A DNA stretch of 64,000 nt from Escherichia coli (GCF_048403405.1 NZ_CP183129.1); one strand, 5' to 3'; positions 41,412 through 62,038 are shown, counted from the first letter of the stretch. The notes: generated by a model from the letters alone, not told the origin. Made by a program: numbers and translations.

Positions 41412-42758
41412 ATGGCCAGCATTAAAGACATCCGCCCATTCGCCCCCGGCATTCCCCCATCTTCCGTTAACCCAGGCGTACGCCCACCAGGGCAGTTCTT
41501 CCTGCCGGTGGAACTCAAGAATGAAATTTTGCGGAACATGAAGTATATCGGCCCGCAAATATTTAGCTGGGGTGATGACCACCGGCAGATCATTGACCTC
41601 AGTACCGCGGGCGAAGTGAAAATACATATGGTAGACAATACCATCATCACGTTGGAGCGCCTGAATCCGAATCCGCAACATAACGAGTTCATGATGGTCG
41701 CCGAATGGTGCCAATGGGCTATGGAGCGGGATGGTTTGCAAGAAAACCTGCAAAAAAACCTGTACGAAATCCTGGAAGAAAACCAGCAAAACAAACAGTC
41801 AGAAATTCCCCAAGAAGACCTGAAAGAAAGTCTGGAAGAAATCAAGGAAAATATCCTGGAAGAAAACCTGCCAGCAAGCCGGATTGAAAACCGGGCAGAA
41901 GCATTGCGCAGAATGAAGGAATGTCTCATTACAAGACGGAGTATGCTCAATCTTAGCAACCTGGGATTGACTTCACTCCCTGAAAATTTGCCTCCACATC
42001 TGATTGAATTTTACTGCAGTAAAAACGTGTTGACCGCGTTACCGAAGGTGATGCCAAAGTGGCTGCTGGTGCTTGACTGTACAGATAACATCTTGATCTT
42101 GTTACCGAAGGTGCAGCCCTCAAAACTGATGGTGCTGAATTGCTATGACAACTGTATTATCTGGCTGCCTGAGCTGTCGACTAACCTGAGAGTGATTAAC
42201 TGTTCTGAAAACTTCTTGCAATTTTTACCGCCGTCGATGCCCCAGTACCTGTATAAACTATCCTGTGCCGGCAACAATATTAACTCAATACCTGATGAGA
42301 TGCTGGAGAACTTGACTCGCCTGAAAGTATTTGACTGTTCTAGTAACGATTTGATCTCTGCACCACGGCGGCCGCCCAAACTAATCATATACTACTGTGG
42401 AGAAAACCAGTTTAAAACGGTACCGGTGCCGCAGCCCCGAAGCCTGAAGGTGTTTAGCTGTAATGGTAACCCGTGGGACAAAGACAATTTACCGACGCTG
42501 CTCAAAGCCGTCGAGGGCCTGAAAAACCAGGAGGGTCTGGAGGAGCTTTTGGACTTTTTGCACAAGGAGTGCCAGTTGAAGCTGGAGAAGCTGGAGAAGC
42601 TGGAGGATCTGGATGACCTTATGGTTCTGGAGCTCCTGGATGACCCGGTACTCCTGGAGCGCGTGAAGGTACAGGAGGACCTGGAGCTCCTGAATCAGCA
42701 GTTGGGCCTGTTGAATCTGGAAAGACAACAGGACTCGCAGCCAGTTAATCAACATTGA
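41412..42758 (+). CDS. Leucine-rich-repeat protein with N-terminal unknown domain and C-terminal coiled coil
   Basis: About ten 20-22-residue LxxLPxxLPxxL-type repeats (aa ~180-370) with a conserved Cys/Asn at the repeat position (…FYCSKNVLTALPKVMPKW / LDCTDNILILLPKV…); C-terminal LEKLEKLEDLDDL heptad region; lower GC than flanking core genes. Confidence 0.75.
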   Translation: MASIKDIRPFAPGIPPSSVNPGVRPPGQFFLPVELKNEILRNMKYIGPQIFSWGDDHRQIIDLSTAGEVKIHMVDNTIITLERLNPNPQHNEFMMVAEWCQWAMERDGLQENLQKNLYEILEENQQNKQSEIPQEDLKESLEEIKENILEENLPASRIENRAEALRRMKECLITRRSMLNLSNLGLTSLPENLPPHLIEFYCSKNVLTALPKVMPKWLLVLDCTDNILILLPKVQPSKLMVLNCYDNCIIWLPELSTNLRVINCSENFLQFLPPSMPQYLYKLSCAGNNINSIPDEMLENLTRLKVFDCSSNDLISAPRRPPKLIIYYCGENQFKTVPVPQPRSLKVFSCNGNPWDKDNLPTLLKAVEGLKNQEGLEELLDFLHKECQLKLEKLEKLEDLDDLMVLELLDDPVLLERVKVQEDLELLNQQLGLLNLERQQDSQPVNQH

Positions 42759-42824
42759 ATCTGTTTGTAGAGTGTTGGCTTCAATGCCGCATTGTATCTG
42801 GTTTCTTTCTAATGCGGTTTTTGA

Positions 42825-42847
42825 TTATGTACACCCTTATGTACACG
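42825..42847 (+). repeat. Two tandem TATGTACAC arm-type sites (distal end of island)
   Basis: ttatgtacacccttatgtacacg; 21 of 23 identical to, and in the same orientation as, the copy beside the integrase gene (61638-61660). Confidence 0.7.
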
Positions 42848-43229
42848 TTTTTTTAAAGCGTTCAGCAATTACGCTGGTGGATGATCACGGATGGCCTGAT
42901 ATCTACAGCCGCCTTAAAAAGCTGGACCCGACCAGCATTACTGCGTATCGGGTTCGTTCGCTCTTTCTACTCGTGGCAGATGAGTTTATCGGTGTGATTT
43001 TATCGGGCGAGGGTATTGTATCAGGCATCCCCTTTTCTATGCAGATTTGCATAGTTTCGAATGGTGGCGTTATGGAAGCCTCTCATATCAGCATCATGCC
43101 CACCAGCGTGAAGTATTTTTTATTTCGCGGGTGTAAAAATTTGACGAGGCGGCGGTCCCATAAGCAATGGGTTGTAGGGATTTCGATCCCCCCTCCTGAA
43201 TGCAATTTTTCGTATATATACAAAACAGT

Positions 43230-43381
43230 GCGGGTTATGCGGGTTACCGGGTTATCTTAGCGTGCTAACTATTTTTTGTTCTTTAGTATCAATATGTTGC
43301 AAAATGCACTGTTCATTATTCAAGCATCGCATAACCCGCAAAACATCCCAAATAACCCGCAAACGCCCCAAAATAACCCGC
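43230..43381. repeat. Iteron cluster 1: three direct GCGGGTTAY 9-mers (43230-43255) plus three inverted copies spaced 21 bp apart (43331-43381)
   Basis: Read directly from the sequence; the same 9-mer recurs at 53610-53732. Confidence 0.85.
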
Positions 43382-44050
43382 AAACACATTGCTGAAAGCA
43401 GGGGTGGATAGTTCCACTGGTGCCACAGAACGGCTGAATACGGTAACTGTTGCTGGTGGTCTGTCCTGTTGTCGTTCCAGTCTCATCAAATTGAGAGGCA
43501 AGACAAAGTGCATTTTTGCACTATAGCCAAAGCCTCATAAAACAGAGTTACCCCCACAGGCTGGCAAACCATTACCCAACGCAATTAAGTGCGTCAGAAT
43601 CGATTACAGCGCGTTCCTGTGGCACGTTGTTGCCGTTCTCAGCAGTGAAAGGAGAGCGTGAAAAGCGCATATCTATTACTGTTGAGGGGTGTAGCGGCAT
43701 ATATCGCGAATATCCACGCCCTTAATCCCGATACCGTCACGGCGCATTGAGATCCACCAGAAGATTAAGATAGTTTTTACCTGAAATTATCCAAATAATT
43801 GTTTTAACTGATTAATTTTTCGAATATCTATTGTTAGGGAATAAATCATCAGATACACCATAAAACGACATCTTTCAGGGTGTAGAAGATGCAAAGCCGG
43901 TACTGAAGAAAAGACAAAGAATATGAATGGCTGGCCACACGATGGAAGGATTGTCCATTGAAGGATCAATCCTAATGGTATAAGTATTAATAAAACCGTG
44001 CAGGGGGCTTTTTTATCTGCGGATTCCCGCCCGGGCGGCGGTGGCATTCG

Positions 44051-44076
44051 TTAAAAACAAGGCCGCGAAAGCGGCC
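44051..44076 (-). terminator. Rho-independent terminator ending the cargo operon
   Basis: On the minus strand: hairpin ggccgc-tttc-gcggcc followed by a U-run (plus-strand A5 at 44053-44057). Confidence 0.75.
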
Positions 44077-60314: not shown

Positions 60315-61579
60315 ATTTGCCTCCGGGCTTTATCGAATGGCGTTACGTTGTAGTCTTTCCCGCTTTCCAGTGCCACCAGCAGATCAGCCCACTGTGCCAG
60401 CGCAGCTTTACGCTCATCAAAATACTGATGGCGGTTATAAATCCCCTCCACACCCTTAATGCGATGATTGAGGCATCGTTCCGCTACGACAGGATCAACA
60501 CCCAATGCTGCTAAATGAGTACGTGCGGTACGCCGGAAGTCGTGAATCGTGAAATTAGGCACATCCGGCATTTCGGCGCGAACCTTAGCCAGTGCTACGG
60601 GTAAAGTGCTTTCCTGAATATGTGGGATCATTCTGTTTTGCATCTTCCTGGCTGGAAGCACCCATGCGCTATTACATGAAAAGGTGTGTAGCTCTCTCAA
60701 CCATTCAACGGCAGGAGAAGGTAGAGGTATATCAATAGGGTCTCCGTTTTTGCTGCGTTCTTCCGGCAAATGCCATACCGCACCATCTAAATCAAACTCT
60801 TCCCATCGTGCGGCGCATAACTCCATCTTACGAACGCATAGTGCCAGCAATAGCTTAAATGTCAGTTCGTTCTGGCGGCTGAATCCTTTTGCGGTGCGCA
60901 TAGCCTCGAATAGCCTGATAAGCTCATCGCGAGTTAGCCAACGGTCGCGGGAAACCTCTTTACCACCAGCATCAGATACTTCAAACGCTGAACAAGGGTT
61001 TATCTCCAGAGCGTGGCGTTTTATCCCATAGTCAAAGATACGGCGTGTCCAGCGTAATACATCTGTTGCTATCGTTGGTGCTCCTCGGTCAACGATACCT
61101 TTCAACATGTCGTCAATGTGGCGTGGCTTAACGTCCTCTACCTTCATATGCCCAATGCAGGGGTTAATATCCTTATCAATTCTCCGGCGAAGGATATCGG
61201 GATGTTTCCATCTCGGAAGTATCTGTCGCTCGAAGTATTCGGCGGCCAGATCTGAAACGCGCATGGCGTTTTTCTCAGCCTCCATTTTTGCCAGTGCTTC
61301 AGCTTTTCGTTCCTGTTTTTCTGCTGCTACGTCATAGCCAAGAGCAACTCTGGCTGACAGCTCTTTTGCTATTTCTCTGGCTTTTGATAGTGACAGTTCG
61401 GAGTAAGAGCCGATAACCATAGCCCGCTGTTTTCCTGCGAGCTTATATCGGAATCGCCAGAACGGGACTGTGTAGTTTTTGGGGTAGCAAATATAAAGGC
61501 CGTTGCCGTCTGCCTTGCCATCAAATCTGTCTCCCGCCTTTATCCATGCGCGGATCTGCATATCTGTGAGTTTTGGCAT
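60311..61579 (-). CDS. int: Tyrosine recombinase / P4-type integrase
   Basis: Start trimmed to MPKLTDMQIRAWIKAGDRFDGKADGNGLYIC...; C-terminal catalytic motifs (R...HDFRRT...Y), 422 aa. Confidence 0.9.
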   Translation of the reverse strand: MPKLTDMQIRAWIKAGDRFDGKADGNGLYICYPKNYTVPFWRFRYKLAGKQRAMVIGSYSELSLSKAREIAKELSARVALGYDVAAEKQERKAEALAKMEAEKNAMRVSDLAAEYFERQILPRWKHPDILRRRIDKDINPCIGHMKVEDVKPRHIDDMLKGIVDRGAPTIATDVLRWTRRIFDYGIKRHALEINPCSAFEVSDAGGKEVSRDRWLTRDELIRLFEAMRTAKGFSRQNELTFKLLLALCVRKMELCAARWEEFDLDGAVWHLPEERSKNGDPIDIPLPSPAVEWLRELHTFSCNSAWVLPARKMQNRMIPHIQESTLPVALAKVRAEMPDVPNFTIHDFRRTARTHLAALGVDPVVAERCLNHRIKGVEGIYNRHQYFDERKAALAQWADLLVALESGKDYNVTPFDKARRQM

Positions 61580-61605
61580 TGCGAATACCTGAATATCGAA
61601 TATGG

Positions 61606-61660
61606 GTGTGTACATAAAGCAATGTACATGAAAGTCATTATGTACACCTCTATGTACACG
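61606..61660 (+). repeat. Four TGTACA-core arm-type sites upstream of the integrase gene
   Basis: gtgtgtacata, atgtacatg, ttatgtacacc, tatgtacacg; the last two copies nearly duplicate 42825-42847. Confidence 0.7.
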
Positions 61661-61708
61661 CATATTGTGCGCTTTGTTGCGTCGTTATGATAGCTCATGA
61701 TAACAAAA

Positions 61709-61730
61709 AAGCCCGACATTTCGCGGGCTT
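61709..61730. terminator. Bidirectional terminator-like hairpin downstream of dadX
   Basis: A6-gcccg-acatttc-gcgggc-TT ... T5. Confidence 0.5.
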
Positions 61731-62038
61731 TATGGTTTTTTGCTGCTTGGTGATTTTTGCTGATAGCTTATTCGATATTCTGAACATGAACCCGAATCTG
61801 CATCAAGGGTGAAGCGTGATTTATCTGAAGTCGAGTTCGAGTCAACAATGAAACGTAAGCGTTTTATGTAGAACGCCTGTGCGGTGAACTCAGGTTCCGG
61901 GGAAATAGTGTCCATCATTTTAATGGACACTATCATGGGAAATGGCTCTGTCACATCAACAACTACAGTTGCTGACCAGCCGGATGGATGATTTTTTCGC
62001 AACCAGAAGACGTTGCCTCCGATCCGGCTTACAACAAG

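Follow-up and report, generated by a model that had tools for sequence, protein, structure and literature searches.

Heterobivalent tyrosine integrases that act on lambda-type attP and attB sites are familiar from lambda, P22, HP1, P2 and L5. Lambda-type integrases are also known to use secondary sites similar to the core. The locus described here lies in a 64,000-nucleotide stretch of an Escherichia coli chromosome (the window). Its integration mechanism is of this ordinary, textbook type and was mapped to the base. As in lambda-type systems, the integrase has an N-terminal arm-binding domain and a catalytic domain, arm repeats lie on both sides of a short core, attP and attB share 7 bp of identity, and attL and attR each retain one arm. 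Unlike those systems, the arm consensus TATGTACAC and its 2 + 4 layout are specific to this element, and the core is inside a coding sequence that attP rebuilds. The P4 family (P4, CP4-57 and many islands; DUF4102/Arm-DNA-bind_3) has the same integrase domain architecture, a small AlpA-type HTH protein, a primase-helicase and an attP that copies the 3′ end of the target gene. Here, in contrast to the P4 family, the element targets a protein gene, yicC, at its 3′ end, and not a tRNA gene.

The boundaries of the island were placed by alignment to an isogenic empty site (Table 1). In E. coli GN02461 (L061), the window flanks matched at 3354 of 3354 bases on the left and 1500 of 1500 on the right. 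The attB of that genome reads GTTAATCAACATTCTGAACATG. The island is located inside the 3′ end of a leucine-rich-repeat (LRR) gene. Insertion at this LRR site was unique among 5,426 complete genomes, with neither LRR::island junction found in any of them (0 of 5,426). Relative to K-12, the whole 21-kb stretch, LRR region and island together, is extra DNA. No tRNA gene was found in the 64-kb window. The initial annotation had correctly noted this for both junctions but had called it unusual. It is no anomaly, because integrases of this lineage insert at the end of a protein gene, yicC, and restore that gene. The boundaries also lie away from the core candidate tgata(t)gctcat put forward at that stage. 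Its two copies exist, 1–2 bases from the starts given for them (TGATATGCTCAT, 40845–40856; TGATAGCTCAT, 61688–61698). They are not the core: one is in backbone also found in island-free genomes, and the other is inside the P arm of attP.

Table 1. Features of the island and its surroundings (positions in the 64-kb window).
Feature	Position	Strand	Description or basis
Backbone segment, not island	40812–40906		77 bp (40821–40897) inverted relative to K-12-like genomes
LRR module, left part; independent older insertion between cvrA and dadX	40907–42756	+	Judged against K-12-like L003, LRR-only L001 and L061
LRR-protein ORF cut by island	41412–42758	+	448 aa; originally 478 aa
attL core region	42744–42763		GTTAATCAACATT^GAATCTG
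Inserted island	42757–61776	−	19,020 bp, genes mostly on minus strand; isogenic empty site and copy at yicC in F719
P′ arm of attP	42760–42854	+	Conserved right arm
Two tandem arm-type sites TTATGTACAC	42825–42847	+	Spacing 12 bp; −86 and −74 (int-sense numbering)
Four-gene virion cassette	44016–51535	−	873 aa (SLT domain), 565 aa, 850 aa, 186 aa
Backbone genes	51620–58899	−	68-aa ORF, PerC-family pseudogene, 138-aa ORF, ProQ/FinO, SSB, primase-helicase, others
PerC-family pseudogene	~51961–52186	−	Frameshifted
ProQ/FinO	52590–53087	−	
SSB	53124–53546	−	
DUF927 primase-helicase	53757–55883	−	
DUF4222, Icd-like/Bro fusion, AntA/AntB, Rha	within 51620–58899	−	
AlpA-like HTH protein, candidate excisionase/regulator	58974–59192	−	72 aa; phrog_66, Pfam Phage_AlpA
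Tyrosine integrase	60311–61579	−	422 aa; Arm-DNA-bind_3 + Phage_int_M + Phage_integrase (Pfam)
GAATATCGAATA, perfect inverted copy of core-left 12-mer (61769–61780)	61591–61602		Between int start codon and nearest arm site
P arm, four arm-type sites	61608–61660	.	
P-arm TGTACA hexamer, +170	61609–61614		
P-arm TGTACA hexamer, +156	61623–61628		
P-arm TGTACA hexamer, +138	61641–61646		
P-arm TGTACA hexamer, +126	61653–61658		
Bidirectional terminator-like hairpin inside attP	61708–61731		Conserved in relatives; 3′ of rebuilt yicC stop at primary site
attR core region	61768–61788		TTATTCGATATTCTGAAcaTG; 7-bp overlap TTCTGAA at 61778–61784
Orphaned last 30 codons and stop of LRR gene	61779–61871	+	Moved 19 kb by insertion

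E. coli F719 has a copy of the island (99.9% identity) between dinD and yicC, at the yicC 3′ end. Its junctions there are attL ...CAATGTTCTGAATCTGTTTG and attR ...CGATATTCTGAATCTGCTCG. All six sampled relatives have the element at the yicC 3′ end. In five further sampled E. coli genomes the left end of the island adjoins dinD, and in relatives L023 and L031 int adjoins the yicC 3′ end. In attP, the last six codons and stop of yicC are present as a synonymous copy, TTATTCGATATTCTGAATCTG, followed by the element's own terminator. Read on the opposite strand, the 21-mer of the attR core, as it stands in attP, gives the yicC C-terminus QIQNIE*. Because attP supplies the last codons and a terminator, yicC stays intact after insertion. 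A contiguous attP in NZ_LT599831.1 is 97% identical to the joined window ends, and attP-type junctions were also found in IMG/VR contigs L019 and L027. In two of these three "attP" records the junction may lie between elements in tandem and not in an excised circle; L147 has two primase genes. A circle excised from the present strain is predicted to have the attP junction TTATTCGATATTCTGAATCTGTTTG. The normal target of the island is the yicC 3′ end, and the LRR-gene site is a look-alike secondary site.

The core is ATTCTGAA, found at 61777–61784 in attR and, with 2 bp deleted, at 42754–42759 in attL. The sequence TTCTGAA is common to attP, attB at yicC and attB at the LRR gene. Strand exchange is placed within these 7 bp because the junction identities at the two sites intersect there. 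No obvious core-type inverted repeats border the overlap, so the cleavage points are placed inside TTCTGAA by shared identity, and their exact positions are putative. The LRR attB matches the attP core at 16 of 21 positions (5 mismatches), including all 7 overlap bases. No other 21-mer with 5 or fewer mismatches to the attP core occurs in the rest of the window, and chance alone would give ~12 in a 5-Mb genome. The attR site is an exact hybrid of attP-left and attB-right. From attB × attP, attL is predicted to read ...CATTCTGAATCTG; the observed attL is this hybrid minus 2 bp (CT) of the 7-bp overlap. Hence, a change after integration or an aberrant event must be assumed. With these 2 bp missing, excision is probably prevented now and the island locked in.

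The int ORF is intact and its product matches phrog_1 (E 3.8e-64). Pfam searches found Arm-DNA-bind_3 (residues 4–90, E 1.3e-18), Phage_int_M and Phage_integrase (residues 213–385, E 1.4e-16) in the integrase. The AlpA-like protein has weak matches to Phage_AlpA (Pfam, E 6.9e-6) and phrog_66 (E 3.4e-7). Its gene is kept apart from int by a 216-aa ORF and a gap of ~470 bp. From the P4-like satellite core (int, psu, delta, sid, alpA, epsilon, alpha; SatelliteFinder), only int, the AlpA-like gene and the primase were found. PHROG annotations of island ORFs of at least 60 aa included no psu, delta, sid or epsilon.

Criteria for PICIs name five core components (PMC10085698). The integrase, the AlpA/Stl/MerR-type regulator and the primase-replicase are all present in the island. 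No match to capsid-morphogenesis or small-terminase genes was recognised in it. By these criteria it would count as a 'Type C' PICI, a class that the authors of the criteria do not accept as a confident PICI (PMC10085698). In the 138-aa ORF, the phrog_1711 'terminase' profile matched only in part (64 residues, E 1.5e-10), and Pfam gave no domain. Like the Gram-negative PICIs EcCICFT073 and EcCIMP1, the island combines int, an AlpA-family regulator, antirepressor-type genes, a primase and a PerC-family gene (PMC11773190). Also like PICIs, it is without capsid or lysis genes and is well under half a phage genome in size. Unlike PICIs, it measures 19 kb against a 9.5-kb median and holds a complete 7.5-kb tail-hub/ejection cassette. 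EcCIMP1 has a few virion-related genes in common with its podovirus helper (PMC11773190). Judged by gene content, the island is PICI-like with a phiV10-type virion cassette.

The cassette is homologous to, and syntenic with, the late-operon end p18–p21 of Uetakevirus (phiV10, epsilon15). Genes 1–3 are homologous to phiV10 p18–p20 and similar to epsilon15 gp15–17. The cassette is 99% identical to an allele of ~41-kb phiV10-like prophages, and this identity spans the first gene's ribosome-binding site to the operon-end hairpin. Unlike Uetakevirus, the island has nothing else of those phages; outside the cassette, no homology to their capsid, terminase, tailspike, lysis or immunity genes was found in it. 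Megablast-level matches (3% of the island) were confined to the cassette in ~41-kb prophage contigs. It is unlikely that the island instead descends by decay from a ~40-kb phiV10/epsilon15-like prophage, its att repeats being functionless relics. The gp15–17-like virion genes, the frameshifted PerC gene and the 2-bp deletion in the attL overlap would all fit such decay, and PHASTER-type tools have called the yicC–dinD insert a partial phage (PMC10050402). However, the 7.5-kb cassette is all that the island has in common with those phages; its other parts are unrelated to them. Integrase relatives were found in contigs of 9–24 kb, never about 40 kb, and 19–20-kb sister elements keep the same backbone but have different cassettes. 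The intact int ORF also argues against a relic. Furthermore, copies 99.9% identical at two chromosomal sites imply that the 19-kb unit moved recently.

About 5% of complete E. coli genomes contain an island of this kind. Other such elements have other phiV10/epsilon15-type alleles, and one sister element has a P22-type gp14/7/20/16 set. It is possible, though less likely than not, that these islands form a PICI-like, hitherto undescribed family of ~17–20-kb integrative, self-replicating, yicC-targeting elements. Their swappable podovirus tail-hub/ejection cassettes would be copied from co-circulating helper-type phages, and capsid, terminase and lysis genes would be missing. If this possibility is true, the elements would be satellites or anti-phage decoys supplying their own DNA-delivery proteins. 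We know of no described satellite family that does so. The PICI-like backbone with a phiV10-derived delivery cassette may be an undescribed satellite way to exploit or interfere with podoviruses.

The initial annotation drew attention to two 23-mers of equal orientation, and both are present as described. They are TTATGTACACCCTTATGTACACG at 42825–42847 and TTATGTACACCTCTATGTACACG at 61638–61660, identical at 21 of 23 positions. Two further TGTACA hexamers, which it had located within 61606–61630, were also found (61609–61614 and 61623–61628 of the 64-kb window). The first is part of a full TATGTACAC 9-mer on the minus strand (61608–61616). The window has 6 exact copies of TATGTACAC. Dinucleotide-preserving shuffles predict 0.18, and none of 100 shuffles reached 6. 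Five of the six copies are inside the two arms. The repeats lie within the island, 69–91 bp from the left junction and 117–169 bp from the right. Measured from the overlap, the six GTAC-centred sites have offsets of −86, −74, +126, +138, +156 and +170. In the contiguous attP these 2 + 4 sites flank the core on both sides and are distinct from it in sequence. Element L019 keeps all six offsets and L027 keeps five, with +156 missing. At the attR-only loci, three P-arm sites are kept in L023 and four in L031, the latter with +171 in place of +170. Overall, four to six of the six sites are retained at base-exact offsets in relatives with integrases 72–88% identical and flanking DNA that is unalignable. 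The motif variant (TGTACA, GGTACA or TGTACC) differs by site and by element. Across 263 E. coli genomes, P′ arm homology stops at 42854, which is 7 bp past the second site. The lambda-like layout proposed at the outset is backed by the position of the sites inside the island, the two-sided attP, the conserved offsets and the arm-binding domain of the integrase. Position, conservation and domain content indicate that the TATGTACAC repeats are almost certainly the arm-binding sites of the island integrase.

The same repeats could be operators of an island regulator (Rha, AntA, the AlpA-like protein or a repressor) that controls int and the leftmost ORF. The four P-arm sites precede the int start codon by 29–80 bp, and the P′ sites come shortly after the GTG start (42772) of ORF 42772–43260. 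The hexamer TGTACA is also palindromic, like many operators. We consider this reading very unlikely. In diverged relatives the sites lie to either side of the core at exactly the same distances, conservation of P′ ends right past the second site whichever gene comes next, and the integrase has a domain dedicated to arm binding. Furthermore, a simple scan found no sigma-70-like promoter in 61400–62100. Int autoregulation of the P2/186/HP1 type is a precedent for dual use of arm sites. The P-arm sites may double as operators in int autoregulation, or may be operators instead.

We hold the following account, taken as a whole, to be very likely. The element's own heterobivalent tyrosine integrase would have inserted the 19,020-bp unit into a secondary attachment site in the end of the LRR gene (last 30 codons and stop), between cvrA and dadX. 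Strand exchange would have occurred inside the 7-bp overlap TTCTGAA. The comparisons show the junctions, core and attP, the primary and secondary target sites and the conserved arm sites. We infer that the N-terminal domain of Int binds the TATGTACAC arm sites, two in P′ (now attL) and four in P (now attR). The P-arm sites, just upstream of int, could also serve int autoregulation. The LRR module is an older insertion, unrelated to the island. Core, boundaries and LRR relation were settled by comparison alone. One element at primary and secondary sites, together with an isogenic empty site and a contiguous attP, is a natural experiment. Comparison of the two sites maps strand exchange to 7 bp and delimits the arms. 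The att sequences are usable to detect, excise or engineer these islands. The present copy has cut short an effector-like LRR gene and can probably no longer excise.

Unoccupied, the LRR module is ~1.87 kb long; its last ~24 bp are now at 61777–61800. It is found in 837 of 5,426 E. coli genomes. The LRR region of the ORF resembles the SlrP/SspH2-type effector LRR domain, and the stop codon (TGA) of the truncated ORF was created across the attL junction. The initial annotation had left three options for the LRR region: part of the element, an older tandem remnant or a separate insertion. Empty-site alignments and LRR-only genomes bear out the last of these. The others are ruled out, since the module occurs alone and the island cuts the LRR frame. 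By these comparisons, the module is an unrelated insertion, older than the island and neither part nor remnant of it. A composite of LRR region and island, or tandem elements of one family, with a left edge near 40.8 kb, is refuted by the empty-site alignments and has a negligible probability: the LRR region has a G+C content of 0.46–0.49 against about 0.52 in the backbone and abuts the island in a stretch wholly extra to K-12, but one of the genomes with the module alone has 100% identical flanks, the island at yicC is without it, and its left edge has no arm motif, integrase remnant or att-like repeat. What lies at that edge is a 77-bp segment in inverted orientation, bounded by 9-bp inverted repeats. 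These repeats are GAGCCTGCA (40812–40820) and TGCAGGCTC (40898–40906), and the left core candidate of the initial annotation is contained in the segment.

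Nucleotides 40000-63200 were compared with 5,426 complete E. coli genomes using megablast. The cvrA-dadX interval occurs in three states: K-12-like, with neither the island nor the module bearing the leucine-rich-repeat (LRR) gene; with the LRR module only; and as an IS3 variant. The island matched strain F719 at 99.9% identity, at a different locus. E. coli GN02461 has the LRR module, lacks the island, and is identical to the window flanks (3354/3354 on the left, 1500/1500 on the right). Hence, it can be used as an isogenic empty site. In GN02461, attB is GCCAGTTAATCAACATTCTGAACATGAACCC. 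In the window, the left junction is GTTAATCAACATT-GAATCTGTTTG and the right junction is CTTATTCGATATTCTGAACATGAACCC. Comparison of these sequences defines the inserted DNA as 19,020 bp. Alignment to GN02461, and to the K-12-like site, thus fixes boundaries that the initial annotation had left open. Coordinates are listed in the table.

Features of the cvrA-dadX region (window coordinates)
Feature	Position	Strand	Remark
cvrA	39026-40762	+	
9-bp inverted repeats	40812-40906		GAGCCTGCA / TGCAGGCTC
77-bp intergenic segment	40821-40897		between the 9-bp repeats
LRR-specific DNA	40907-42756 and ~61777-61800		compared with K-12-like site
LRR-protein ORF	41412-42758		between cvrA and dadX
attL deletion	42754-42759		2 bp (CT) absent
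Island	42757-61776		
23-mer, left	42825-42847		TTATGTACACCCTTATGTACACG
Cargo region	42855-44015		between P' arm and virion cassette
Virion cassette	44016-51535	-	
345-aa ORF	56435-57472	-	
23-bp direct repeat	57465-57487		site of 527-bp loss
Tyrosine integrase gene int	60311-61579	-	last of minus-strand gene block between cvrA and dadX
Perfect 12-bp inverted repeat	61591-61602 and 61769-61780		
TGTACA hexamers	61609-61614 and 61623-61628		
23-mer, right	61638-61660		TTATGTACACCTCTATGTACACG
Terminator-like hairpin	61708-61731		
Core in attR	61777-61784		ATTCTGAA
Severed LRR codons	61779-61871		last 30 codons
dadX	62039-63109	-	

The island interrupts an LRR gene that encodes 478 amino acids when intact. 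In the window, the protein has 448 amino acids and terminates at a TGA created across the junction. The core common to attP (the joined island ends) and the LRR attB supersedes a direct repeat suggested earlier. The left copy of that repeat, TGATATGCTCAT (40845-40856), is backbone DNA in a 77-bp invertible-looking segment also found in island-free genomes. The right copy, TGATAGCTCAT (61688-61698), is within the P arm of attP. The reported lack of a tRNA gene was borne out; ARAGORN found neither tRNA nor tmRNA genes in the window. With Rfam, no RNA family reached the gathering threshold between 40500 and 62200.

In F719, the same element is placed between dinD and yicC, with attL GAGTTATTCAATGTTCTGAATCTGTTTGTAG and attR GCTTATTCGATATTCTGAATCTGCTCGCG. 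The left end of the element adjoins dinD in five more sampled E. coli genomes, and two IMG/VR relatives (L023 and L031) have the integrase gene next to the yicC 3' end. On the yicC strand, native and attP-borne sequences both encode QIQNIE-stop, their two differences being synonymous. Hence, attP brings substitutes for the six final codons of yicC, with a terminator-like hairpin behind them. At yicC, attP and attB are identical across TTCTGAATCTG, and at the LRR gene across ATTCTGAA. The two intersect at TTCTGAA (7 bp) which, judged from this shared identity, is most likely the overlap region. Counted from explicit sequences, mismatches to attP across the 21-bp core region number two at the yicC site and five at the LRR site. 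By chance, ~12 sites per genome are expected with five or fewer mismatches; the rest of the window contains no other such 21-mer. Neither LRR::island junction, used as query, was found in the 5,426 complete genomes. Given this result and the five-mismatch core, we conclude that insertion at the LRR gene is a rare secondary-site integration.

The LRR module is present in 837 of the 5,426 genomes (~15% of complete E. coli), in no case with the island. It contains no integrase, arm motif or att-like repeat. These observations answer the question, previously left open, of whether module and island belong together: they are separate. The LRR module is an independent acquisition, older than the island insertion. 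Directly before it, the 77-bp segment is inverted in LRR-bearing compared to K-12-like genomes. Whichever way this segment is oriented, a small ORF (MDDK...) starts within it. Repeats of the interrupted LRR protein resemble LRR domains of SlrP/SspH2/IpaH-type type III effectors, and LEE/LQE-like repeats are abundant in its C-terminal part. The protein had no match to the NEL ligase domain.

Repeats at both island ends had been interpreted as arm sites. We recovered the two 23-mers, in the same orientation and identical at 21 of 23 positions, and the two further TGTACA hexamers. The exact 9-mer TATGTACAC has six copies in the window (0.18 expected) and none of 100 shuffles reached six. Five copies are within the two arm clusters. 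The sixth (16347-16355) is distant from the island and probably reflects chance. In the sense of int, GTAC-centred sites are offset from the overlap by -86 and -74 (P' arm, now in attL) and by +126, +138, +156 and +170 (P arm, now in attR). All six offsets are identical in the window composite and comparison loci L004 and L019. Five occur in L027, which lacks +156. Three of the four P-arm sites are found in L023 and all four in L031, with +171 replacing +170. Integrases of the compared relatives (L019, L023, L027 and L031) are 72-88% identical to that of the window, and DNA between the sites is unalignable. The motif variant (TGTACA, GGTACA or TGTACC) differs by site and by element. In a more distant group, for which integrase identity is 64%, the 100 bp preceding int also contain three repeats of the GGTA(C/T)A/TGTACC type. 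Homology to the left island end mostly stops at window 42854 in a comparison of 263 E. coli genomes. This is 7 bp past the second P' site, and cargo beyond differs between genomes. The integrase has Arm-DNA-bind_3, Phage_int_M and Phage_integrase domains. Together, the conserved offsets, P' homology limit and integrase domains strongly support the earlier reading of the repeats as predicted integrase arm-type sites.

The P-arm sites precede the int start codon by 29-80 bp. Hence, a second role in int autoregulation is plausible. A promoter scan detected no sigma-70-like site in the int upstream region. In the perfect 12-bp inverted repeat, one half carries the core-left sequence (TATTCGATATTC) a second time, between the closest arm site and the int start codon. 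Conservation of this copy in relatives is partial, and it may offer Int an additional core-type site for autoregulation.

The initial annotation had called for an attP sequence, and a contiguous junction is available in NZ_LT599831.1 (phage_14408_2), a contig of 19,226 bp. It joins both window ends as predicted (...GATAGCTTATTCGATATTCTGAATCTGTTTGTAGAGT...) with 97% identity over 320 bp. Across the end-to-start join of the contig, the frame of a gene annotated injection protein stays open for ~70 further codons (~140 in total) and then stops. This is consistent with, though short of proof of, a circular molecule. IMG/VR contigs L019 and L027 also have attP-type junctions. Locus L027/L147 was rejected as an excised circle; two primase genes point to tandem elements. 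Its junction, probably between such elements, was kept as attP-type only.

The window attL is defective. Instead of the expected ...CAACATTCTGAATCTG..., it reads ...CAACATTGAATCTG... with CT missing. Since the isogenic attB and the window attR both have CT, the loss occurred at or after integration. We examined attL cores at the yicC site in four other strains, a sample skewed to sequences similar to the window. Two have the identical 2-bp loss, a third has a 7-bp loss and the fourth has a point change (A>G). It looks as though the overlap is damaged repeatedly where Int presumably cleaves, or immobilisation is selected. With an overlap of 5 bp in attL and 7 bp in attR, excision of the window island should be blocked. 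Thus, the attL deletion would render excision absent or very rare, while F719-type yicC copies would generate the excised junction TTATTCGATATTCTGAATCTGTTTG.

Most island genes are on the minus strand. From attR to attL, these are int, a 216-aa ORF, an AlpA-like HTH protein, Rha, AntA/AntB, a Bro/Icd-like protein, DUF4222, a DUF927 primase-helicase, SSB, ProQ/FinO, a 138-aa ORF, a PerC pseudogene and a 68-aa ORF. Four virion genes (873 aa with an SLT domain, 565, 850 and 186 aa) and ~1.2 kb of low-G+C cargo (0.41-0.44) follow. Capsid, portal, terminase, tailspike and lysis genes are absent from the island. Compared to F719 (L002 18732-19260), 527 bp are missing between 23-bp direct repeats, fusing a Bro-N-type ORF with an Icd-like ORF into the 345-aa ORF (56435-57472). 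Small ORFs in the cargo region had no PHROG match, and neither they nor other unassigned ORFs had PADLOC matches. The NRZ14408 element has an Abi-family gene at the equivalent position. Hence, the region may be a hotspot for variable defence genes or cargo.

By gene content, we class the island as a PICI-like integrative element. Of the five core components that de Sousa et al. (PMC10085698) list for PICIs, it has three, and the IMG/VR contigs bearing relatives of its integrase measure 9-24 kb rather than ~40 kb. The island is similar to EcCIMP1, a PICI mobilised by a podovirus (PMC11773190), yet is larger and bears a virion cassette. In the literature, we found only a passing reference to a 'partial phage between yicC and dinD' (PMC10050402). 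The att system is an ordinary example of a well-known kind. Of what remains, the phage-derived DNA-delivery cassette is the most interesting. Such tail-hub/ejection cassettes in islands may be an undescribed satellite strategy. The cassette is 99.0-99.5% identical to one in ~41-kb phiV10-like prophage contigs. The homologous stretch begins at the ribosome-binding site of the first gene and ends with the operon-end hairpin. Outside it, the island is unrelated to these prophages. The phiV10 counterparts are p18-p21, the final genes of the structural operon. Sister elements at yicC have the same backbone with other cassette alleles (843, 686 and 918 aa), and the NRZ14408 contig has a P22-type gp14/7/20/16 set.
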